The notes under the pieces: generated by a model
Told to the model about the DNA's origin: nothing
Database searches by the model: none
What the model saw: only the letters and a program-made list of their open reading frames with translations
Position numbers and translations under genes: made by a program
Part shown: positions 421-13,501 of the stretch, piece after piece
Layout of the letters: each line of letters opens with the position of its first letter
Position numbering within the stretch: the stretch's first letter is position 1
Assembly: GCA_963798085.1 (NCBI GenBank)
Contig: CAWCRS010000007.1
Coordinates: forward strand, 672,001 to 736,000
DNA length: 64,000 nt
From: an uncultured Gemmatimonadales bacterium
GTDB lineage: Bacteria; Gemmatimonadota; Gemmatimonadetes; Longimicrobiales; RSA9
Direction of reading: 5' to 3'

Positions 421-2922
421 TTACCGGATTGTGGCGTCGCTCCGGTAGTAGTCACCCAGCAGGTGCTCCGAGAAGTACTCCATCATCATGTGGTTGAAGT
501 AGGGCTGCATGTCGCCGTAGCCGTGGGGCTTGCCCGGCAACATCATGAAGTCGAAGCGCTTGTTGGCCTTGATGAGTTCGTTCATGAGCCGGATCGTGCC
601 GGCCGGGTGCACGTTGTTGTCCATGTCGCCGTGCGCTAACATCAGGTTGCCCTTCAGGTTGGCGGCCAGCTCGGCGTTGGTGGGCACGTGGATCTCGAAC
701 TTCACGTCCTGCTCCTGTTCCTGAGCCGAAGCGTCGGACTGGCCATCGTTGCCACTGCGGTCGACGACCGTTCCCTTCTTCTGCGTGGCCACGATCTTGA
801 GCCCGTGATACTGCTCGCTCCAGTTCTGGTTGTAGACATTGTTGTCATGATTGCCCGATGATGACACGCCCACCTTGAAGAAATCGTTGTAGGGCGGCAG
901 CATCATCGCGGCCGCGGTCATGAAGCCGCCGCCGGAGTGGCCGAAGATGCCGACCTTGTCGAGGTCGATCCAGGAAAAGCGCGCGGCCAGCTGCTCGATG
1001 CCCGCCTTCTTGTCCGCCAGACCGTAGTCGCGGAGGTTGAAGTAACCGTAGTTCTGGTAGGCGTTCGAGCGCAGCGGATTGCCGCCGCGATTGCCGATCT
1101 GGATCACGATGAAGCCGAGCGCCGCGAGACGCTGCTCCACGTTGTTGCCGCTGAACGTCGCGCTGACCTCTTCCGTCTGCGGGCCCGGATAGACGTGGGC
1201 AATGATCGGGTACTTCTTCGTGGAATCGAAGTCGAACGGCTTCCACATGTTGCCGTAAATGTCGGTAATGCCGTCCGCCGCCTTCACCACGAAGCGCTCC
1301 GGCGGCTTCCAGCCCAGCTCTTTCAGCTTGCTGACATCCATTTCAGCAAGCGGCATCACTGTGGCGCCCGTGGCATCGCGGATGACCGCCTGGTTGGGCA
1401 GGTCGGGGCGCGAGAAGTTGTCGACAATGTAGCGCTTGCTGGGCGACAGCTGCTCGTTGTGCTCGCCCTCACCCGCGTCCAGCAGGGCGAGGCCCGTGCC
1501 ATCGAGGCTCACACGGTAGAGATGGTGGTAATATGGATTCTCTCCCGGCTCACGGCCCACGCCGCGCACGTACAGCACGCCGCGTACGGAGTCGACGGCG
1601 AGGATGTTGTCCGCGCGCCATTCCCCTGAGGTGACGGGTCCCTTGAGCGTCCCGTCATTGCTGTAGAGGTAGTAGTGCCCCCAGCCACTTCGCTCCGACC
1701 ACCAGAGGAAATCACCGCCCGCCTTCACATAGCGCGCGTTCTGGCGCTCGAGGTTGGCGTTCTCCACGCTCTCGGTTATGAGCGTCTTGATCGTCTGCGA
1801 CGGCATCGCCACATCGATCATTTCCATGTTGCGTTGCAGCCGGTCGCGACGCGTCAGGCGCACATGATCCGAGCCGGTGCCGTTCCAGTGAACATCGAAG
1901 AGTCGCTGGTCCTTCCATTTCGCGACGTTGATCGGCGCGACCGCCTTCTCGCCCCGGTGATAGAAATACAGTTCCTGCTGCGGCACGTTCTCCTCGCCTG
2001 GCATGGCGTACTTGTAGGACACGAGGACGGGCCGCGGCTGCGCCAGCACATTGACGAGGTACAGCTCCTTCACCTTGCGCGTGTCCTCACGCGTCACGAC
2101 AAAGGCCTTCGAGTCAGGCGACCAGGTGACCTGCGCGCGCACACGCGGGTCGCGTGACCGCGACTGCTGCTGCTCGTCCTGCTGGTCTTCCTGCTGCTGC
2201 TGCTGCTGTTGCTGCTGCTGCAACTGGTTCGCCTGCGTCGTGTCGCGGGCGCCGAAGCTGTGATACTGCTCGCCATCCGTGCTCACCTGGATGGTATCGC
2301 CGCTCTTGACCTCGACGACGTACAGGTTGTGATCGCGGGCGAACGCAAAGGCGGTACTGTCCGGCGAGTAGTTGCGGAAGTTCACATTGCCACGTCCGCC
2401 ACCGCCGAAGCCACCGCCGCCCCGGCCGCCGCCGCGGCCGCCGAAGCCGGGAACGCTGTCACGCACCGCCCGCCCGATGTGCTTGAGAGTCTCGCCCGCC
2501 AGGCTCCATTCGTAGCGCAACGAGTCCACGTTGAAACGGATCGACTTGTGGTCGTCCGTAAACACGACGTTGGTGAACGGCAGGTTGAATGCGTCGTACG
2601 GCTTGTGGTGCAGCGTCGAGAGCTGCGTGGCGAGCTTGGCCTGATTGAAGAGCGGCTTCTTGGTCTTCGTGATGGGCACAACCAGATAGAACGTCGATCC
2701 GGTGTGATCCCGCCAGTTGTACCAGAGTGAATCGCTCTCGCCAATGAAGCGCGGCTGCACGTTGTTGCTGTAAATGATCTGCCGCACCTGTGCATCGTCG
2801 AACTTGTTGCTCAGCTCCCAGTTGGCGCGATTGACGTGCGCCTGCTGGGCACGAGCCTGCGCCACGCCAATGAGCAGCATCGCCGCGGCCGCGAACGTGG
2901 TTGTCCGCCTGGGAATGTGCAT
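421..2922 (-). CDS. Exported S9B dipeptidyl-peptidase IV-like serine peptidase
   Basis: Signal peptide (AQA), DPP-IV beta-propeller region, YPGPQ, nucleophile GHSGGG, HGDMDNNVH, GKPHGY; contains RGG and poly-Q inserts. Confidence 0.92.
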   Translation of the reverse strand: MHIPRRTTTFAAAAMLLIGVAQARAQQAHVNRANWELSNKFDDAQVRQIIYSNNVQPRFIGESDSLWYNWRDHTGSTFYLVVPITKTKKPLFNQAKLATQLSTLHHKPYDAFNLPFTNVVFTDDHKSIRFNVDSLRYEWSLAGETLKHIGRAVRDSVPGFGGRGGGRGGGGFGGGGRGNVNFRNYSPDSTAFAFARDHNLYVVEVKSGDTIQVSTDGEQYHSFGARDTTQANQLQQQQQQQQQQEDQQDEQQQSRSRDPRVRAQVTWSPDSKAFVVTREDTRKVKELYLVNVLAQPRPVLVSYKYAMPGEENVPQQELYFYHRGEKAVAPINVAKWKDQRLFDVHWNGTGSDHVRLTRRDRLQRNMEMIDVAMPSQTIKTLITESVENANLERQNARYVKAGGDFLWWSERSGWGHYYLYSNDGTLKGPVTSGEWRADNILAVDSVRGVLYVRGVGREPGENPYYHHLYRVSLDGTGLALLDAGEGEHNEQLSPSKRYIVDNFSRPDLPNQAVIRDATGATVMPLAEMDVSKLKELGWKPPERFVVKAADGITDIYGNMWKPFDFDSTKKYPIIAHVYPGPQTEEVSATFSGNNVEQRLAALGFIVIQIGNRGGNPLRSNAYQNYGYFNLRDYGLADKKAGIEQLAARFSWIDLDKVGIFGHSGGGFMTAAAMMLPPYNDFFKVGVSSSGNHDNNVYNQNWSEQYHGLKIVATQKKGTVVDRSGNDGQSDASAQEQEQDVKFEIHVPTNAELAANLKGNLMLAHGDMDNNVHPAGTIRLMNELIKANKRFDFMMLPGKPHGYGDMQPYFNHMMMEYFSEHLLGDYYRSDATIR
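2162..2222 (-). repeat. (CAG)n trinucleotide tract encoding poly-Q
   Basis: ctg repeats on + strand; protein QQQQQQQQQEDQQDEQQQ. Confidence 0.9.
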
Positions 2923-3217
2923 GGTCGGATTCTCCGTCGGTCAGTACGCTGTGACTCGCGACGCCGTAGTCCGCGCGGACGGCTGGATCGCAAGCGCGGC
3001 GGCCGGTGTCGTGGTGGGACGGTCAGCGTGAGGAAGATAGGGGGTTGTCGCCCGCTACGGGAGTATACAGGTCGGCATGCAACGGACCCGGGACGGATGG
3101 GCCGGCGAGGCGGGGCGGAACCCGCTGCTCGGGGATGGACCGGCGCGCCCACCCTCGGCATCCGCCAGAGACCTTGCAGATTGCCAGCCAAAACGGTGAG
3201 CGGCGTCGTCGTCCACA

Positions 3218-3254
3218 ATTCATAAATCATTCATGAGCAATAACTTATATGAAT
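3218..3254. promoter_or_regulatory. AT-rich imperfect palindrome in divergent promoter region (IHF-like or regulator site)
   Basis: attcataaatcattcatgagcaataacttatatgaat; attcata/tatgaat outer arms; contains CAA-N4-TTA. Confidence 0.45.
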
Positions 3255-3347
3255 CACACCCGGTGGTGCGATTCCTGCTCGAACGACGGGTGCCCCAGGC
3301 ACGAGTGCGTCCGGGGCCTGTCTGATTCCTGACCCGAGAGGTGAGGC

Positions 3348-3950
3348 ATGCGCCGACGCTGGCACATACCCGGGGCCGCGGCCGTTCTGGCCATCGCGCT
3401 GTTCTGCCTGAGTTGCGACCGAAGCTCTCCCACCGACACACCGCTGAATCCGCCCGCCAGTGGAGCCCTGCTGGGGCTGCCGCGTCTGGGCGGAGCGGAT
3501 CCGACGCCGCAGCTGCCACGCGGGATGCGGTTCATCGAGGAGGAGCGGTCCGGCGGTGGCCAGGATCTGGTAACGGGCCTCTTCGGTCTGCTGGGCGGTG
3601 AGCTGCACCTGAACGGCGAATCACTGCTGGTGCCGGAGGGCGCGGTGCTGCGGTTGACGCTGTTCACGATGGAGACACCGGACACGAAGGTCATCAATGT
3701 CAACCTGAGTGCGCTGACGGGCGATCTGCTGCGCAACGTGCTGTCGCTGCTGGGCCTGTTCCAGAAGCCGGTGACGGTGGAGTTGTCGTATGCGCACGCG
3801 ACGAACGTCACGGATCCGGGCAAGCTGGTGATCGTGCGACTGCTGGACGACGGCAAGGTCGAGGTCCTGCCGACGCGTGTGGACCGGCAGCGCAAGGTAG
3901 TGTCAGCGCAGCTCGATCACTTCTCGAAGTACGCAATGGCATCCAACTGA
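3348..3950 (+). CDS. Lipoprotein with ZU5-like domain ending in HFS-KYAMASN
   Basis: RBS gaggtgagg; signal peptide and lipobox-like CLSC; GGEL..L.VPEGAV, FQKPVTVELSY, VD..V.A.LDHFSKYA are ZU5-like features. Confidence 0.7.
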   Translation: MRRRWHIPGAAAVLAIALFCLSCDRSSPTDTPLNPPASGALLGLPRLGGADPTPQLPRGMRFIEEERSGGGQDLVTGLFGLLGGELHLNGESLLVPEGAVLRLTLFTMETPDTKVINVNLSALTGDLLRNVLSLLGLFQKPVTVELSYAHATNVTDPGKLVIVRLLDDGKVEVLPTRVDRQRKVVSAQLDHFSKYAMASN

Positions 3951-3953
3951 CGC

Positions 3954-5609
3954 ATGGAACGCCGGCTCGAGTTGCACAGCGCGCGCGACACCGAGGAGAC
4001 ACTGGAGTCGCTGGTCGAGCAGGGCCGGGCCGCCGAACGCGCGGGCGCATGGGATGAAGCGCTGCGCGCGTTCGACGGCGCGTTCCGCAAGCTGCGCCGC
4101 GAGCACGGAGCGGAGCGCGCGGCGGAGCTGCTGCGCTGGATCGGGACGGTGTTCCGCAATCGCGGCGAGCTGGAGAATGCGCACGAGTTGTACGAAGCGA
4201 GTCTGGCCGTTGCCGAAGCCGCAGCGCTGCCCTACCACATCGCCTCCGCGCTCAACTGTCTGGCCATCATCGCGCAGTTTCGCGCCAACGTGGATGATGC
4301 GGAGCAGCTCTACCTGCGCGCGAGTGAACTGGCGCAGCAGGCCGGTGACGACCGGCTGGCGGCCATGATCGATCAGAACGTAGGAACGCTGGCTAACACG
4401 AAAGGCAGCTACGACGCGGCGCTCGGTCACTATCGCTCGGCGCTCCGCCGTTTCCGCCGTCTGCAGGATGAAGTCGCCGCGGCGTGGGTGCTCAACAACA
4501 TGGGCATGGCGCACGTCGACCTGGGGCAGTGGAACAACGCGGTGCGCGCGTTCGACGAAGCCTTCGAGCTGGCGGATCGCCAGCGCGACACGCACCTGAT
4601 CGGCACCATCGAGCTGAACCGCGCCGAGCTGCATCTCAAGCGCGGTGTTGTGGGCGATGCGCGCGACTGCTGCGACCGCGCGTTCGAGGTGTTCAGCCGG
4701 GTGGGCTCGCAGAGCGGTCTGGGCGAGGCCTACAAGTTCTACGGTGTACTCTACCGCGAGATGGGCAAGCCGGGTCTGGCCACCACGCATCTGCGCAACG
4801 CCATCGAAACGGCAGTGGGCTGTGAGGACCGGCTGCTGGAAGCGGAAGCGCGAAGCGAGGCTGCGCTGCTGCATCTCGATAACGGCGAGAATCGCACCGC
4901 GCTCGAGTGCATGAACCGCGCGCACCGGCTGTTCACGGACCTGCGCGCGCGTGCCGAGCTGCTGGATGTGGATTCCCGTCTGGACCGGCTGGAGGAGACG
5001 TTCCTGAAGGTGGTGAAGGCCTGGGGCGAGTCGATCGAGTCCAAGGATCGGTACACCGCGGGTCACTGCGAGCGTGTGGCTGACTACGCCTGTCTGCTGG
5101 CGGAAGCACTGGGCTTCCAGGGTCGCGATCTTACGTGGATGCGCATGGGCGGGTTCCTGCACGATGTGGGCAAGATCGTGGTGCCGCCCGCGATCCTGAA
5201 CAAACCGGGAAAACTGAGTCCCGAGGAATTCGACGTGATGAAGACACACACCACGGCTGGTGACGAGCTGACTACGCCGCTCAACTTTCCGTGGGACATC
5301 CGGCCGATCGTGCGCAACCACCACGAACGCTGGGACGGCACAGGCTATCCCGACGGCCTCGAGGGAGAGGACATCCCGCTGGTGGCGCGCATTCTGTGCG
5401 TCGCGGATGTCTACGACGCGCTCACGACGGCGCGCAGCTACCGGCCGGCGCTGCCCGCGCTCGAGGCCCTGCGCATCATGGAGCGCGAGTCCGGCAGCAA
5501 TCTGGATCCGAAGATCTTTCCCATCTTCCGCCAGCTGATTCTGGAGCATGCCGCCCAGCGCGGCGGCATGGCACGGCTGCGCACCCCGGGCGCGTTCGCC
5601 GCCGCCTAG
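3954..5609 (+). CDS. TPR-repeat + HD-GYP phosphodiesterase (cyclic dinucleotide)
   Basis: Roughly 8 TPR-like helical repeats (ALNCLA, DQNVG, LNNMG), then KDRYTAGHCERV, LHDVGK, HHERWDGTGYPDGL, ADVYDAL, RSYR; no TM segment or signal peptide. Confidence 0.93.
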   Translation: MERRLELHSARDTEETLESLVEQGRAAERAGAWDEALRAFDGAFRKLRREHGAERAAELLRWIGTVFRNRGELENAHELYEASLAVAEAAALPYHIASALNCLAIIAQFRANVDDAEQLYLRASELAQQAGDDRLAAMIDQNVGTLANTKGSYDAALGHYRSALRRFRRLQDEVAAAWVLNNMGMAHVDLGQWNNAVRAFDEAFELADRQRDTHLIGTIELNRAELHLKRGVVGDARDCCDRAFEVFSRVGSQSGLGEAYKFYGVLYREMGKPGLATTHLRNAIETAVGCEDRLLEAEARSEAALLHLDNGENRTALECMNRAHRLFTDLRARAELLDVDSRLDRLEETFLKVVKAWGESIESKDRYTAGHCERVADYACLLAEALGFQGRDLTWMRMGGFLHDVGKIVVPPAILNKPGKLSPEEFDVMKTHTTAGDELTTPLNFPWDIRPIVRNHHERWDGTGYPDGLEGEDIPLVARILCVADVYDALTTARSYRPALPALEALRIMERESGSNLDPKIFPIFRQLILEHAAQRGGMARLRTPGAFAAA

Positions 5610-5639
5610 CCGATAACAGCCTGTCAGACGAGAGCCATC

Positions 5640-5903
5640 ATGGCGCCGTCCGACCGGATCCGACTCCTGTGGTTGCGCGGATCGCTGTTCGCCACCGCGC
5701 TCCTGTCTGCGCTCGTGCTGCAGGGTTGCGGCCGGCGCGGGCCGGCAGACTCGCCACTGTCGCCTCCGGTGGCGAGCGCCGATGCCGCGGCATCCCGTGA
5801 GTCAGGCGACACACCCGCGTCCGGTCGCTCGCAGGGATTCACCTTCGTCGAGGAATACCGCGCGCCGGGCTCCGCCTCGGTCAGCACGATGGCCTCCAAC
5901 TGA
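5640..5903 (+). CDS. Small lipoprotein, shortened paralog of 3348-3950, ending SVSTMASN
   Basis: Lipobox LQGC; 17/45 ungapped identities to the upstream lipoprotein from the lipobox Cys; identical C-terminal MASN. Confidence 0.75.
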   Translation: MAPSDRIRLLWLRGSLFATALLSALVLQGCGRRGPADSPLSPPVASADAAASRESGDTPASGRSQGFTFVEEYRAPGSASVSTMASN

Positions 5904-5909
5904 TCCGGG

Positions 5910-7553
5910 TCAACGGCTGGCGGTGCGCGGCTGGGCGTCGGCCAGCCACCAGCTTCCCACATTGATGAACGCGCCACGCACATCCATAACGGCCCCGCGC
6001 AGTCGCGCGCGTGCGGCGTAGAGATTCGGGACGTACCAGAGGAAGGTCCAGGGCTGCTCGTCCCGGATGATGCGCTGCACCCGGTGCCAGCGCGGGATCG
6101 CGTCGCGGCGATCCGTGAGCGTGGCCAGCGTGTCGAGCGTGGCATCCACGGTGGCGTTGTGAAACGAGGCGAGCTGGTATTCGCCGTTGATGGCGGCGGA
6201 ATGGAAGGTGTCGCGCAGGTTGATGCGGAAATCCGCGTCCCACGCCATGAGCACGGCGTCGAAGTCGCGGGCCGGGCTCGAGATCTGGCCGATGAGCGTG
6301 GTGAACTCGACGGGTCGCACGCTCATGCTGACACCCACGTTCGCAAGATCCGCCTGGATCATTTCCGCGACGTCACGGGTGAAGGCGTTGCTCGTGGGGA
6401 TCTTCAGCTCGATGCGGAAGGGCCGGCCGTCCGGCAGCCGCAGCTTGCCGGAGGCGTCGGGGCGCAGACCCGCTTCGGCGAAAAGAGCGCGCGCGGCCGC
6501 CGTGTCGTACGGCAGCGGGCGCACGGAATCGGGGAACGCCCAGTGGAACGGGCCGATCGGACCGGAGGCCAGCTCGCCGTGGCCGCCGCGCAGCACCTGC
6601 AGGATCTGCGGACGGTTGATCGACAGGGTGAGCGCACGCCGCACCCGCGCATCATCCAGAGGTCGGCGCTTTCCGTTCCAGCCGATGAAGTGGTACTGCG
6701 TCGCCGCTTTCACGATGGGCACGACGCCGGCCTCGCCCCGGAGTCGCGTCAGATCCTCCGCGCGCGGCGCGAGAATCAGGTCCGCGTTGCCGGTGAGCAG
6801 CTCGGTCACCTGCGCGGTGTTCTCGCTGATGACTCGCCACACCACGCGGTCCAGGTGCGGCCGGCCGCCCAGACCCGCCGGAAAGTCGGGATTGGCGTCG
6901 AACACCCAGCGATCGCCGGCGCGATACTCCGCGAAGCGGAACGGACCGTTGCCGATGGGCGCGTGATTGAATCCGGCCTGACGCATGCGCGCGGGCGGAA
7001 TCGAATCCAGCGCGTGCTTCGGCATGATGGGCAGGAACGCCCATGTCAGCAGCGGATCGATGAAGCGGTCGAGTGTGAAGCGGACGGTGAAGGAATCCAC
7101 CACGGATACGGACTTCCAGTGCATGAGATCATCGGCATTGGGAAAGCCGCTGGCCGGATCGCGCGCCCGGTCGAACGTGAATGCCACGTCCCATGCGGTC
7201 GTCTTCGGTCCATCGCTCCAGCGCACGTCGTCGCGCATGTGGAAGACCAGCGCGGTGTCGCCCTGCCAGTCCCAGCTGCGCGCCAGCGCGGGCTGAAAGC
7301 CGCCCTCCACATCCAGGGATACGAGTGGCAGGAAGAGCGCGTGCAGCAGGAGGTCCTGCGTGTAGGACTCGGACGCAATGAACGCATTCATGGGTCCGAC
7401 GTCGTTGGGGCCGGCGATCACCAGCGTACCACCATCCCGCGGCGCGGCATCAGCGGCGGACGCGACCGGCAGCGGCGCGTTGTCCCGGCACGCTGTGCCC
7501 AGCGCGGCGGTCAGTGCGAGGAGCAGCCGGCCGAGCGTAAGAGCCGGGTGCAT
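5910..7553 (-). CDS. ABC transporter peptide-binding lipoprotein (SBP family 5, OppA/DppA/AppA-like); alternative start 7601
   Basis: Lipobox GTAC; LARSW, F.MR.DV.WSDG..TA.DV.FT, PIGNGPFRF, VRRAL..I.R motifs; no permease or ATPase adjacent. Confidence 0.9.
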   Translation of the reverse strand: MHPALTLGRLLLALTAALGTACRDNAPLPVASAADAAPRDGGTLVIAGPNDVGPMNAFIASESYTQDLLLHALFLPLVSLDVEGGFQPALARSWDWQGDTALVFHMRDDVRWSDGPKTTAWDVAFTFDRARDPASGFPNADDLMHWKSVSVVDSFTVRFTLDRFIDPLLTWAFLPIMPKHALDSIPPARMRQAGFNHAPIGNGPFRFAEYRAGDRWVFDANPDFPAGLGGRPHLDRVVWRVISENTAQVTELLTGNADLILAPRAEDLTRLRGEAGVVPIVKAATQYHFIGWNGKRRPLDDARVRRALTLSINRPQILQVLRGGHGELASGPIGPFHWAFPDSVRPLPYDTAAARALFAEAGLRPDASGKLRLPDGRPFRIELKIPTSNAFTRDVAEMIQADLANVGVSMSVRPVEFTTLIGQISSPARDFDAVLMAWDADFRINLRDTFHSAAINGEYQLASFHNATVDATLDTLATLTDRRDAIPRWHRVQRIIRDEQPWTFLWYVPNLYAARARLRGAVMDVRGAFINVGSWWLADAQPRTASR

Positions 7554-7843
7554 GCGACCGGCGGAAGCTGCGTCCGCCGCACGAAATCGGAATCCGCCCA
7601 TGGTTTCGACCTTCGGATGCGCGACGAGAGCGGCTGCGCGGGGAGCAGCCGGCGTTCGGGGAGTGAGCCGTCTCTTCAGTCTCGGCAGTCCCGGCCGGCT
7701 GGCGCAGTGGAAGAAGCGCCCCGGGGAAGGGGCCGGAGCTCCGGGCACGCGGTTGCATTGCAGGCCTGGCCGGCAACACCGAAGTTGCGGTGACGTGCGA
7801 CTGCGGGACCTCCGGTCCCGATCCCTGCAACCGACTCCGGATC

Positions 7844-9391
7844 ATGAGGACCTGCGCGGGTCTCGGCGCCCTTCTGCTGGGCAGTGCAGTCGCGTGTGCC
7901 AGGCCGCAGCCGGTATCGCTGGTATCGGTGGAACGCGTCATTACGCACGACAACCGGGCGGCCGCGGGCCGCCTGCGCAATGACGAGTTAGAGATCCACC
8001 TCGAGCTGCGCGCCGGCGAATGGTACCCGGATTCGCCATCGGGGCCGGCTGGCGTCGTGCAGACCTTCGCGCTCGAAGGCGGGCCGCCGCTGATTCCCGG
8101 ACCGCTCATCCGCGTGCGCACCGGCACGACCATCCACGCGACCGTGCACAACCCGCTCCCCGATTCGACGCTCGTGGTGCACGGCCTGCACACCCGGCCC
8201 GGTTCTGGCACCGATTCCCTCGTGGTCCGTCCCGGCGAGACGCGGGACGTGCGGTTCCCCGCGGGCCAGCCGGGCACCCACTTCTACTGGGGCTCGACCT
8301 CGCACACGGACATGGAGTCCCGACTCGGCAGCGACAGCCAGCTGGCCGGCGCGTTCATCATCGACCCCGCAGACGGGCCGGCGCACGAAGACCGCGTGTT
8401 CGTCATCGGGCAACTGGTTCGATCCCCCGGATTCCGCAGGCCCGCCGCCCGTCGTCGAGCGCGATGTGATGGTGATCAACGGACGGTCGTGGCCATGGAC
8501 CGAGCGCTTCGACCTGCTGCAGGGCGATACCATCTACTGGCGCTGGCTGAACCCCACGCCCAACGCACACCCAATGCACCTGCACGGTTTCTTCTACGAC
8601 GTCACCAGCCGCGGCAGCTGGGCGGCAGACACGGTGTTAGAGAGGGGGCCGCGCCAGGTGGTCACGGAAACCATGCTGCCGGGTTCGACGTTCGCCATGC
8701 GCTGGGTCGCGGAAAGGCCGGGCAACTGGCTGTTCCACTGCCACTTTGCGTTCCACGTGTCGCATTTCCTCTCGTTCCGCAAGATTCCGGACCCCGAGGA
8801 TGCCGATCCGCCGGGCGTGTTGGAGCATTCGGCCAGCAGCATGCGCGGGTTGATCCTGGGCTTGCACGTGCGGGAGCGGAACGACCGTCCGGGCGAGGCT
8901 GTCAGGGGGACCGAAAGCGCGGCCGCGAGTGCGGCGGACACGGCGACGCCGCCGCGGCGGGTCCGCCTGCTGGTGGACGCGAAGAATCCGGGACCCCGCG
9001 AACAGTTCGGTTATGTCGTGCAGAACGGGGCGGAACCGGCGCGTGACTCCGTCCTCGCGCTTCACGCCGCCACGCGCCGGCACGTTCATCTACCATTCGC
9101 ACTCGAACGAAGACGCGCGTGTTCATCGCACTGGCGCGGCGGGCGCCACCGGCAGGGAAATGGGTGGGACGTACCGCCGCGGACTACCAGCTGGCGGAGT
9201 GGCGCGCGGTGGCGAAGGATGGCGCCGATCTGCCCGCCGCGCAGCAGGTGAGCGGGCCGGCCTGGATCGGCATGGGACCGGGCGAGACCGCCGACTTTGC
9301 GTTCACACCCACCATCGCCGGCGACCTGACGATGCAGGTCGTGACGCAGGTCGAGGGGTGGGTGCTCGATCTGCCGCTACACGTGCGGTAG
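7844..9391 (+). pseudogene. Multicopper oxidase, frameshifted with apparent internal deletions
   Basis: Pieces in several frames: PGPLIRV, VHGLH, HPMHLHG, WLFHCH..FH, FTPPRAGTFIYHSH, WRAVAKDGADLP; breaks near 8430-8465, 9055 and 9115. Confidence 0.75.
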
Positions 9392-10657: not shown

Positions 10658-11878
10658 TCACGAAGCCGACGGGTCGCCGACGCGGCCCATGAACAGGATC
10701 GTGCCCGACGAGCGCTCGCGGATCGCGAACAGGAACGGCCGGTCGAACACGAGCGAGGGCGGCAGCGACGTCACGCCAATGCCAACCGCGGTGGCGGCGG
10801 CCGCCTCCGTGCCCAGCTCGTGCACATCGATGAACGTCTTGTGCTCGACGCGCGAGATATAGAGGTCGTTTCGTGAAGTCGTAATGCGACCGAAGTCCGC
10901 CTGAAGCGGCAGGAACGCGACCGGCATCCCCATCGACTTCAGCGCATCATCCAGTCGCACGCCGAAATCGAAGCGGAACTTCGGCATGATCGTGATCAGC
11001 CGCCCCGGCTGCAGCTGCGCCATCCAGCTCTGCCAGCGCTGCGGTGTGAGCGAGACGATGAGATCGCTGAGCTTGCCGCCCGGCGGCGGCGCCACCACCA
11101 CCATGCTGAACGCACTGTCCGCATACAGCAGCTCGACCGCCTGGATCTCGCTGTTGTTGACGAATGGCCGCGTCGCATCCCCCGACATCGTCGCTACGCT
11201 GACCTGCGCACCGCTGAGTGTGGTGAACGGCGCGTTGCCCGTGGCGTCAGGATTGAACGGCGTGCTCCAGGGCGCCTTGAAGTAGACCGCGTTCACCAGG
11301 AACATCACCTCCGCCGGATCGATCTGCTGGACCAGATCCTTGATGCGTCCGCCGGTTGCGTCTTCCGCCCAGTGGCTGATCGTGCCCGGCGCCGAGGCGG
11401 AGCGGAAGTCGATCGATCGGACTTCCGCATCGAACCAGTTCTTCGCCGCGTCCAGGAACGGCTGCTCCACCGAAAACGTCTGCTCGTACCAGATCGAATT
11501 CGCCAGCCTGAACTCGACCTTCGAGTCACGGGCGCGCAGCTGCTGGATGAGCCCCTTGTACGCCGCGTTCACATCCGCTTCCGCCATGCCGCCGAAGCCC
11601 AGCACATCGCGCATTTGGGAGAGGGTCTCGCCCTGCGCGCCATTCGCCGTCATGCCCAGCGCCATTGACGCACTGAGCGGCGAGACCATGACGTTCGGTG
11701 CGCTGGCGCTGCCCGCTGTTGCGGAGAACAGACGGAGCCCAAACGAAGTGTTAGCGCTGGAGACGCGGAGTTCGTCGGCGGTGAAAGCTCGGGGCGGCTC
11801 CGTCGGCAGGACATCCGTGGCGGAGTGGCAGGCCGAGAGCGCTGCTGAGAACAGAAGAGTGGCGGCGAGCTTCTTCAT
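10658..11878 (-). CDS. Serpin-family lipoprotein (serine protease inhibitor)
   Basis: Lipobox LSAC; SPLS, NAVYFKAPW, hinge ELGTEAAAAT, FDRPFLF; RBS aggtagga. Confidence 0.95.
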   Translation of the reverse strand: MKKLAATLLFSAALSACHSATDVLPTEPPRAFTADELRVSSANTSFGLRLFSATAGSASAPNVMVSPLSASMALGMTANGAQGETLSQMRDVLGFGGMAEADVNAAYKGLIQQLRARDSKVEFRLANSIWYEQTFSVEQPFLDAAKNWFDAEVRSIDFRSASAPGTISHWAEDATGGRIKDLVQQIDPAEVMFLVNAVYFKAPWSTPFNPDATGNAPFTTLSGAQVSVATMSGDATRPFVNNSEIQAVELLYADSAFSMVVVAPPPGGKLSDLIVSLTPQRWQSWMAQLQPGRLITIMPKFRFDFGVRLDDALKSMGMPVAFLPLQADFGRITTSRNDLYISRVEHKTFIDVHELGTEAAAATAVGIGVTSLPPSLVFDRPFLFAIRERSSGTILFMGRVGDPSAS

Positions 11879-11918
11879 GGTCCTACCTCTGCAAGGTCGC
11901 ATCGTCTGCAAACGACAT

Positions 11919-12192: not shown

Positions 12193-13501
12193 TCACACCA
12201 CGTTGGCCGGTCTCCGCGCACTCTCGACCTGGAACTCATCGGTCAGCCGCGCCGCAAGCTGTGTGCCCTCTCTCTCGCGCAGGAACATCATCAGCAGCAG
12301 ACCGACCACGAAGAAGAGGAGGATGCTGGACATGGCGAGGCGGTGACTGCCGGTGATGCGCAGGGTGGTGGTGTAGAAGAGCGGGCCGAGCAGGGACGAC
12401 ATCTTGCCGGAGAACGCGTACAGGCCGAACAGCTCCGCCTGTTTGTGCTCGGGGACCAGTTTGGCGAGCAGGCTGCGGCTGGCGGACTGGTTGGGACCCA
12501 TCATGATGCCGATCAGGGTGGCGGCCAGCCAGAAGCCGGCGACGGTCGTCGTCGCCACGCCAATGATGGTGGCAATGGCGAGGCCGACGAGGGTGATGAT
12601 CATGGTGCGCTTGCCGCCGATCCTGTCGTCGACGAAACCGAAACCGAACGCGCCAATGCCGGCGGCCACGTTCAGGCCGATCGCCATCACCAGCACCTTC
12701 TCGAGGGGCATGCCGAGCACGGCGCCGGCGTAGATCGCGGCCATGTCGATCACGGTGATGAGGCCGTCGTTGTAGATCATGTGCGCGATGATCAGCCTGG
12801 CGGCTTCGCGCAGCTCGTGCAGGTGGCGGATGGTGACGGCCAGGCGGTGGAAACCCTGGCGCACGTACATGCCGAGCGGCGCACTGCGGCGCTCGGCGCG
12901 CTCCTTCACGCCGAAGAAGATGGGCAGCGAGAACACGAAGTACCACGCGGCCACCAGCAGGATGGTGGAGCGCACGTTCAGGTAGTTCGTGTGCGGCACC
13001 CAGCTCTGCACCATGCCCAGGCCGAGCGCCAGGCAGAGCAGGCCGCCCACGTAGCCGAGGAAGTAGCCGTAGCCGGAGATGCGGCCGATGTTCGAGCTGT
13101 TCGAGAGCTCCGGCAGGAAGGCGTTGTAGAAGACGTTCGACGCCTCGAACCCGGTGTTAGCGAAGATGAAGAGCACGGCCGCCGGTCATGGCCTGGCCGG
13201 GGCCCATGAAGAAGAGGGCGACCGTGAACGATGATCGCCTGCACCGCCGAGAGCACGAGGAAGAACTTCTTGCGGCCGGAATAATCCGCGATGGCGCCCA
13301 GCACGGGCATGAGCAACGCGACAATGACCGCCGAGATGTTGAGGGCGGTGCCCCAGAGCACAGTGCCCGATGTTGCTGCCGGCGATCACGTCCGTGAAGA
13401 AGCGGTTGAAGATGAACGTCACGATCGAGCGTGTTGAACGCCGAGCTGCCGAAGTCGTAGAGAGCCCAGCCCAGCACATCGCGGCGCGTGAAGTCGCTCA
13501 T
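12193..13501 (-). CDS. MFS transporter, UMF1/Atg22-like; several frameshifts at 13180-13430
   Basis: WALYDF, PVLGAIAD, NVFYNAFLP, GRISGYG, YNDG, QSASRSL, ELFGLYA motifs spread over four ORFs. Confidence 0.85.

Follow-up and report, generated by a model that had tools for sequence, protein, structure and literature searches.

A ZU5-lipoprotein/TPR-HD-GYP gene module of Gemmatimonadota as a candidate peptide-signalling system

Introduction

In Firmicutes, peptides are known to signal by binding cytoplasmic tetratricopeptide repeat (TPR) receptors. For the GAIN-like domains of bacteria, the role proposed to date is the shedding of surface proteins, not signalling. Here we describe a gene module of Gemmatimonadota that sets a TPR protein beside a lipoprotein of GAIN-type fold. 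It lies in a 64,000-nucleotide stretch of DNA (the window; positions 672,001 to 736,000 of contig CAWCRS010000007.1, assembly GCA_963798085.1) from an uncultured Gemmatimonadales bacterium, and comprises genes for a lipoprotein with a ZU5/GAIN-type fold (LP1), a TPR-HD-GYP protein and a short lipoprotein (LP2). A first-pass annotation, made from the letters alone, had read this locus as a TPR receptor with a phosphodiesterase output, flanked by two lipoproteins with a common C-terminal peptide, and knew of no such system. The module is genuine and conserved, and is undescribed as far as we searched: the literature listings consulted, which most subscription journals lay outside, gave neither a description of a ZU5-lipoprotein/TPR-HD-GYP system nor work combining ZU5 and HD-GYP.

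In the RRNPP(A) systems of Firmicutes (Rap-Phr, NprR-NprX, PlcR-PapR, AimR-AimP), a cytoplasmic TPR receptor adjoins an exported precursor whose C-terminal peptide is matured by peptidases and imported by an oligopeptide permease; some precursors are predicted to use signal peptidase II (PMC9765709, PMC10075063). Published criteria place the receptors at 250–500 residues and the propeptides at 10–100 residues, and propeptides may show internal duplications of the peptide (PMC10075063).

A β-sandwich that cuts itself ahead of its last strand is found in the GAIN domains of adhesion G-protein-coupled receptors (GPCRs), in the FIIND of NLRP1 and CARD8 and in the ZU5 superfamily, and for the adhesion GPCRs the newly exposed last strand (Stachel) is the tethered agonist (PMC3482391). 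NLRP1 is cut between F1212 and S1213 (PMC9700037). In the bacterial MAIN domains, Edman sequencing places the cut between F and S of an HFS motif (Brogan and Rudner, bioRxiv 10.64898/2026.05.12.724683).

Results and Discussion

Organization of the module

The features of the module, all on the + strand of the window, are:

3336–3346, +: Shine-Dalgarno-like sequence ahead of LP1 (sequence inspection)
3348–3950, +: LP1, a 200-residue lipoprotein (open reading frame with a putative signal peptide, Cys23 at 3414–3416 followed by Asp, a low-confidence linker and a ZU5/GAIN-fold domain at about residues 71–200)
3918–3926, +: H191-F192-S193, predicted autoproteolysis motif, cut at F192/S193 (conservation, structural register)
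3924–3947, +: SKYAMASN, predicted released 8-mer, which doubles as the last β strand of the model (194–199)
3954–5609, +: TPR-HD-GYP protein of 551 residues, cytoplasmic, candidate receptor and phosphodiesterase (Pfam, model, motif residues)
4002–4949, +: TPR array of about eight helical hairpins (homologue conservation, model)
5034–5516, +: HD-GYP domain, metal ligands intact, with Tyr367 at the position of E185 in PmGH (binuclear type)
5640–5903, +: LP2, an 87-residue lipoprotein (Cys30), a duplicate of LP1 with an internal deletion and no ZU5 core; candidate second peptide precursor or relic
5877–5900, +: SVSTMASN, C-terminal 8-mer of LP2, without the Tyr of the family

The three genes are co-oriented, with 3 nt between LP1 and the TPR-HD-GYP gene and 30 nt between the latter and LP2. 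By inspection, both lipoproteins have an N-terminal hydrophobic stretch and a lipobox-type cysteine (C23 and C30). They end in MASN through different codons, ATG GCA TCC AAC TGA in LP1 and ATG GCC TCC AAC TGA in LP2. The first-pass annotation is upheld on each of these points. The match exceeds chance: of the 83,203 frames in the genome that close with a stop, just four end in MASN, namely LP1, LP2, another ZU5 lipoprotein (on contig C1) and one more. The annotation had extended the common motif to S-x-x-x-MASN; as an ungapped N-terminal alignment of the two proteins reaches T83 of LP2, the serine of LP2 may be either homologous or coincidental. A scan for promoters and terminators gave no signal above chance.

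Fold and predicted self-cleavage of LP1

Pfam gives LP1 a weak ZU5 match only (E 0.18). The AlphaFold model (predicted local distance difference test score, pLDDT, 83) matches the ZU5 domain of ankyrin (Z 10.8, root-mean-square deviation 2.2, 113 aligned residues) and the GAIN domains of CELSR1 (Z 9.8) and CD97 (Z 9.6). UNC5b and the FIIND of NLRP1 and CARD8 were also matched, and Foldseek agrees. The H-F-S motif, invariant in 26 close homologues, is placed by the model between the last two strands (184–189 and 194–199). The predicted structure is therefore of the ZU5/GAIN/MAIN kind, a β-sandwich whose last strand follows a loop with an H-hydrophobic-S/T motif. Eight chains among the matches listed (five GAIN, two NLRP1 FIIND and the ZO-1 ZU5) align just to LP1 residue 192. 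The human NLRP1 chain among these alignments ends at residue 1212, and the aligned GAIN chains presumably also terminate at their own cleavage sites.

The conservation of this site was assessed with a motif-free profile, chosen against circularity, and metagenome loci selected by the motif were dropped from the count. In 99 C-terminal domains, P1' is Ser in 92, Thr in five, Cys in one and Arg in one, and P2 is His in 93; changes at P1' thus go almost only to the other two nucleophiles (98/99 Ser, Thr or Cys). A scan of genome contigs with a broad alignment gave no usable pattern, and a narrower alignment that preselects for the motif was used instead. The piece beyond the cut is 7–8 residues long in 111 of 132 ZU5 domains, a count that includes the motif-selected metagenome loci and leaves out 10 ZU5 hits without a readable motif.

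On this evidence LP1 probably severs its own last eight residues. The peptide picked out by the first-pass annotation begins exactly at the predicted cut, since motif and register place the cut before S193. A self-cleaving ZU5/GAIN domain, which that annotation overlooked, would supply the mechanism of release and would explain why the motif starts at a serine.

Of 131 matched family proteins (164 examined), 87 have Asp or Glu as the residue after the lipobox cysteine. By the rule established in E. coli, Asp at this position would suggest retention in the inner membrane, provided that the rule is valid in Gemmatimonadota, which is an assumption. In a further set of ZU5 lipoproteins (loci L169, L171, L172, L175, L176 and L051), a Pro-rich insertion replaces the catalytic loop, and the tail and the TPR neighbour are kept.

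The TPR-HD-GYP protein

The middle gene encodes, as first proposed, a soluble TPR array fused to an intact HD-GYP domain: it has no signal-like N-terminus and matches Pfam TPR families and HD_5/HD. The model (pLDDT 92) shows a TPR superhelix, a long helix and then the HD-GYP domain. Across 35 homologues, no change is seen at N101, N142 or R268, and R61, N182 and N222 reach at least 90% conservation, giving one Asn per repeat. The nearest TPR structures among the matches listed are peptide complexes of LGN/GPSM2, with kinesin light chain also at the top. No RRNPP structure was recognised among those matches, an absence that excludes nothing. The Asn ladder and the predicted LGN-type, peptide-binding fold are consistent with the peptide receptor that had been suspected.

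For the HD-GYP domain, the nearest structures among the matches listed are DvhD, PA4781 and PmGH, and the closest by sequence is V-cGAP3. The residues H371, H403, D404, K407, H432, H456-H457-E458, G464-Y465-P466, D485, R494 and R497 are kept, covering the HD, HHE and GYP motifs, the further metal ligands and the substrate residues near the C-terminus, and the catalytic residues are invariant in the 35 homologues. A Tyr at the position of PmGH E185 marks the binuclear type, which usually stops at pGpG (bioRxiv 10.1101/2021.11.05.467447). Judged from these residues, the domain would probably cleave cyclic di-GMP (c-di-GMP) to pGpG and possibly 3'3'-cGAMP too. The genome has 14 GGDEF matches, of which 12 span most of the domain and two are partial.

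Linkage and distribution

The pairing of lipoprotein and TPR genes extends across the phylum. A sample of 151 genomes from the class gave 58 strong TPR matches. Of these, 51 lie within 4 kb of a ZU5 gene, which in 48 cases is upstream on the same strand; the unpublished genomes G054, G160 and G026 contribute five of the 58, and one sequence in the search profile is from the unpublished G019. Of 94 ZU5 domains in short frames, 62 have a strong TPR match nearby, compared with 1 of 41 in long frames. For the remaining 32 short frames, 14 of 20 fetched loci carry a weaker TPR homologue. In other classes of Gemmatimonadota, a TPR gene is present at 17 of 18 loci. The partners of ZU5 are either TPR-HD-GYP or TPR-only proteins. 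The ZU5 profile matched 65 of the 151 genomes. It also matches 3,972 cluster representatives at E ≤1e-10, a total that will include other ZU5/MAIN proteins. Among titled relatives, 8 of 11 are from Longimicrobiales or other Gemmatimonadota. The protein-atlas clusters listed as matches are all uncharacterised and mostly of Gemmatimonadota, with ZU5 in 50% of the members of one of four.

Genes for sigma-54 activators occur between or beside TPR-only and TPR-HD-GYP genes (L222:3109–4170 and 1628–3238, L225:4049–5371, L045:6492–7880), once with a GAF-GGDEF gene, and are a possible second output. A lower-GC contig (L043:1–4918) carries five tandem ZU5 lipoproteins with family-type tails beside multiheme cytochrome genes. 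It has no TPR gene in the available DNA, and the array begins at the contig end. This array suggests that the lipoprotein family reaches beyond Gemmatimonadota.

Conservation of the tail

The tail can matter without the fold, because six lipoproteins of 64–112 residues that lack a ZU5 core end in a family-type tail beside relatives (L204, L211, L212, L007, L079 and L082). Candidate precursors reduced to the tail therefore occur in other genomes, in line with the original proposal. All six sit in loci with TPR or ZU5 genes and retain the family Tyr. Those of L204, L211 and L212 end in RYAM-A/G-A-N/S, in loci that hold two TPR-HD-GYP genes and two tail types. L204 and L211 are 47% identical overall and have RYAMAA in common. 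L212 has a strong ribosome-binding site, and the start of L211 overlaps the upstream stop (coupled). L079 and L082 derive by deletion from a full-length gene that is present in G042; the deletion ends at the motif codons, and the two differ by 20 synonymous and 12 non-synonymous codons. Two genomes (L054, L183) show exact tandem duplications of seven residues of the tail.

The relation between tail and receptor was examined in two ways. The first-pass annotation had asked whether groove residues co-vary with the tail. With overall similarity removed, presumed groove residues and tails correlate at a partial r of 0.30, against 0.06 ± 0.13 for random sets, of which 5 of 200 were as high. This comparison used 50 non-redundant pairs of 64, with groove positions picked by repeat periodicity and not by contacts. 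The correlation goes beyond relatedness; matching within family by genome gave no clear result (below).

Secondly, residues 12–352 of the TPR protein were co-folded with residues 171–200 of LP1. The score was 0.55, compared with 0.02 for the best of three controls, and the runs had at least 38% shared contacts and a partner pLDDT of at least 39. Among solved complexes 116 of 157 pass the mark, and among mismatches 2 of 215; passes at 0.60 or below come from 18 of the 157 and from both mismatches. The partner was the last 30 residues of LP1, 22 of them upstream of the cut, in place of the bare 8-mers and scrambled controls first envisaged, and likeness to solved TPR-peptide complexes may contribute to the score. 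Co-folding lends weak support to binding of the tail by the TPR array.

A different, Gly-rich tail is carried by short lipoproteins beside TPR genes at L045:3644–3799 and L048:2886–3161, the latter with GLLVGGN twice. Arg-preceded, Gly-ended units also lengthen the tails of the ZU5 lipoproteins L020, L049, L104 and L231, possibly as a second peptide class.

LP2

LP2 is a paralogue of the first 76 residues of LP1 (35% identity over 66 N-terminal residues), and LP1 is its closest relative among the proteins compared; the common MASN end thus reflects common descent. Within the common part, 14 of 23 identical residues are encoded by different codons and nucleotide identity is 45%. The third-position GC of LP2 is 0.82, like that of the adjacent genes. 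These figures indicate an old duplicate that is still coding in appearance and has kept MASN-stop. A recent deletion from a long-lived full-length paralogue could also have produced it. A matrix built on 25 family tails was used to score the frame ends, and 5 of 83,203, LP2 itself among them, reached the score of the LP2 end. Coverage of LP2 was absent from two DNA sequencing runs of small share, which counts neither for nor against it, and the listed runs included none of RNA.

The layout with two flanking lipoproteins is not conserved, and here the first-pass annotation fails. LP2 is missing from L030 and L025, and no gene like it was flagged in the 39 TPR loci of the window's own family, in a scan that was incomplete, as it overlooked L204, later found by eye. 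A conserved second flanking lipoprotein was therefore rejected, and LP2 is a singleton. The chance that it works as a second precursor, from which ordinary proteolysis would yield a variant or competing peptide, falls just short of even; otherwise it would be a relic.

Neighbouring genes

Two genes on the opposite strand adjoin the module:

5910–7553, −: orphan family-5 (oligopeptide-type) solute-binding lipoprotein, convergent on LP2, frame open to 7748; candidate import component
421–2922, −: exported DPP IV-like S9 peptidase, divergent from LP1, syntenic in the closest relatives only; membership of the module doubtful

The binding protein has no adjacent permease. A complete Opp/Dpp-type operon with two oligopeptide-type ATPases is present at C7:27–33.6 kb. 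A family-5 gene occurs, in several arrangements, in 9 of the 39 own-family TPR loci, where all eight binding proteins tested are nearer to that of the window (51–70%) than to the Opp-operon protein (40–44%), and in 5 of 49 ZU5-plus-TPR loci class-wide. The recurrence of a peptide-type binding protein as a neighbour fits the import route first supposed. Because the substrate specificity of family-5 proteins is broad, it is a candidate, rather than an assured, peptide carrier.

The S9 peptidase was considered as a core part. Its position next to LP1 recalls the association of DPP9 with FIIND fragments. It is syntenic in L025 and L030, yet an S9 gene occurs in just 2 of 39 own-family and 1 of 49 class loci, which makes this role doubtful.

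Further along the window, a multicopper-oxidase-like gene (7790–9391; Pfam) and an MFS-transporter-like gene (12193–13501; by inspection) are split over frames, which suggests assembly indel errors or pseudogenes. An exported serpin-like lipoprotein (10658–11911, − strand; translation inspected) lies about 5 kb from the module.

Proposed function and alternatives

We propose, with a probability of roughly 0.58, that the locus is a working module resembling RRNPP systems, in which a self-released peptide is imported by an ATP-binding cassette (ABC) transporter, is bound by the TPR array and controls the HD-GYP phosphodiesterase. LP1, with its putative signal peptide and lipobox, would be exported and lipid-anchored in the envelope. 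Its ZU5/MAIN domain would cut itself at F192/S193, as do tested homologous folds. The 8-mer would remain in place as the domain's final strand, to be freed once the domain is unfolded or degraded. The family-5 binding protein would pass it to the Opp/Dpp-type ABC transporter encoded elsewhere. It would finally enter the Asn-lined TPR groove and alter how the fused HD-GYP domain acts on c-di-GMP.

A number of observations weigh against this proposal. Of 18 homologues in another class, five have no nucleophile and three more no His, and all of these are still ahead of TPR genes, so self-cleavage is not universal; the five also keep the tail, which argues for its importance and against obligatory self-cleavage. 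MAIN fragments stay associated after the cut, and their release took SDS or 95 °C (bioRxiv 10.64898/2026.05.12.724683). Moreover, the 8-mer provides no handle for force-driven release. Six of the 20 further ZU5 loci have no TPR match in the fetched stretch, and the linkage counts are not independent, because the genomes are related. Outside the window's own family the binding proteins are not clearly of the same clade (2 of 6 nearer to that of the window). LP2 has a weak ribosome-binding site, and its tail lacks the Tyr that 97 of 99 tails and each of the six other ZU5-less genes have. A search for its homologues found only itself among 17 candidates of 47–153 residues, longer forms lying outside the LP2 search. 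In the two closest syntenic loci its place is taken by a 21-nt gap (L030) or an unrelated gene (L025).

The remaining objections concern the tail itself and point to another explanation, in which it does no more than complete the ZU5 fold as the last strand, the link between LP1 and the TPR-HD-GYP protein has another cause, for example a shared envelope-sensing complex with a membrane partner, and LP2 and the other short genes are deletion relics. The LP1 tail is indeed the last β strand of the modelled fold (194–199), and Ser-x-aromatic follows the motif in 16 of 16 long-tailed (internal) ZU5 hits with a readable motif; part of the tail conservation is structural for these reasons. In a quick tree the tails largely track the protein bodies. 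Within-family genome matching gave p = 0.066 by means and 0.0095 by best match, the latter biased by copy number. Genome-specific peptide types were not established from the tail comparison, the quick tree and this matching. An identical 8-mer ends the ZU5 lipoprotein on contig C1, which has no TPR neighbour (G000:C1:223544–224476; L001:7545–8477). That copy is about 37% identical to LP1 in the domain, shows three synonymous differences in the last 12 codons, lies downstream of an ArsR-methyltransferase and adenosylhomocysteinase-like pair, and is possibly a trans-acting precursor. The first-pass annotation had regarded equal conservation of the tail in ZU5 proteins without a TPR neighbour as adverse to its idea. 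This is found in part, in the C1 copy and in the Ser-x-aromatic of internal domains.

The same explanation gains from the singleton status of LP2, from the descent of L079 and L082 from a full-length G042 orthologue by deletion, and from ZU5 arrays with no TPR gene in the available DNA (L043, L036, L040), which end at or near contig edges. However, independent deletions have retained the signal, the lipobox and the exact terminal residues (RYAMAA in L204 and L211 at 47% identity), and the synonymous excess in L079/L082, the strong ribosome-binding site of L212 and the coupled start of L211 also speak against it. Nor does a fold need tandem tail duplications, and no membrane protein recurs as a neighbour in the loci examined, whereas the binding protein does. 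We consider a purely structural tail unlikely.

Alternatively, the TPR array might monitor export. It would bind, in the cytoplasm, the free C-terminus of precursor that has yet to leave because Sec export or lipidation is slow, and no peptide would be released or imported. This would account for the conserved C-termini, the ZU5-less precursors and the homologues without a catalytic motif; translational coupling would co-locate precursor and receptor, and the co-folded partner still scored with 22 residues upstream of the cut. It leaves unexplained the nucleophile kept in 98 of 99 homologues and the linked clade of solute-binding proteins, and we regard it as improbable. Least probable is a peptide that is released but acts via TPR-only paralogues or another receptor, for example to control adjacent sigma-54 activators, with the HD-GYP fusion as a downstream adaptor or nucleotide receptor: a TPR-only gene directly follows the ZU5 gene at many loci and a sigma-54 activator or GGDEF gene is inserted ahead of the TPR-HD-GYP gene at several, but the latter directly follows LP1 here and in most close relatives, with catalytic residues that do not vary.

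Beyond the preferred reading of a self-released, imported peptide that acts on the TPR-HD-GYP protein, a more general scheme can be offered tentatively, at somewhat less than even odds. Gemmatimonadota would share a peptide language throughout the phylum: a GAIN-type lipoprotein without cargo would keep a self-cut, Stachel-like peptide in the periplasm and free it as a diffusible signal. A dedicated binding protein would import the peptide, and TPR receptors would wire it to c-di-GMP turnover and possibly to sigma-54 regulators. Precursors, LP2 among them, would repeatedly have lost the self-cleaving domain and been reduced to minimal, Phr-like propeptides. Such domain-shedding precursors would show small-peptide precursors evolving from a folded autoprotease. 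The ZU5 profile was matched in 65 of the 151 genomes from the class, and if our proposal is correct, such regulation would be common among these abundant and little-studied soil bacteria.

Comparison with known systems

The module resembles the RRNPP(A) systems in its TPR-bearing, cytoplasmic receptor, in the direct adjacency of the receptor and precursor genes, in the C-terminal position of the candidate peptide in a putatively exported precursor, in the duplications of the peptide and, if our proposal is correct, in import of the oligopeptide-permease type. It differs in belonging to a diderm phylum, in its HD-GYP output and in a folded precursor that is predicted to cleave itself. The receptor (551 residues) and LP1 (200 residues) exceed the published sizes, and only the non-conserved LP2 (87 residues) fits. 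Because of these two sizes and as no homology has been demonstrated, we do not class the module as a member. The RRNPP-like layout with a phosphodiesterase output, as first annotated, holds as a likeness in working, not as membership.

The HD-GYP domain has all the metal ligands, the GYP motif, the RxxR-type substrate residues and the binuclear type of the characterised phosphodiesterases (V-cGAP3, 5z7c; PmGH, 4mcw; PA4781, 4r8z; DvhD, 9rbz). Its sensor is a TPR array; the available text of an HD-GYP survey (bioRxiv 10.1101/2021.11.05.467447) has no occurrence of TPR or 'tetratrico'. If our proposal is correct, c-di-GMP phosphodiesterases gain a peptide input.

LP1 is like the MAIN proteins (Brogan and Rudner, bioRxiv 10.64898/2026.05.12.724683) in its bacterial GAIN-like fold, HFS motif, and predicted secretion and anchoring in the envelope. 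The available text of that preprint, whose supplementary tables may list such proteins, does not contain TPR, HD-GYP, lipoprotein, Gemmati or quorum. MAIN proteins consist of a signal, large enzyme or adhesion domains, the MAIN domain and an anchor at the C-terminus, and release the ectodomain. LP1 is inverted, with an N-terminal lipid anchor, no cargo and a predicted released piece of 7–8 residues.

With the GAIN domains of adhesion GPCRs, the FIIND of NLRP1 and CARD8 and the ZU5 superfamily, LP1 has the fold and the cleavage register in common, and the last strand, newly exposed by the cut, is again proposed as the signal. In adhesion GPCRs the Stachel remains joined to the seven-helix receptor, whereas the strand of LP1 would be a free peptide that crosses a membrane to a separate, soluble receptor. 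The module would thus join TPR-peptide signalling and GAIN-like domains in a diderm phylum, and would be a soluble bacterial counterpart of the tethered agonist of adhesion GPCRs, readily testable with one purified protein and an 8-residue peptide.

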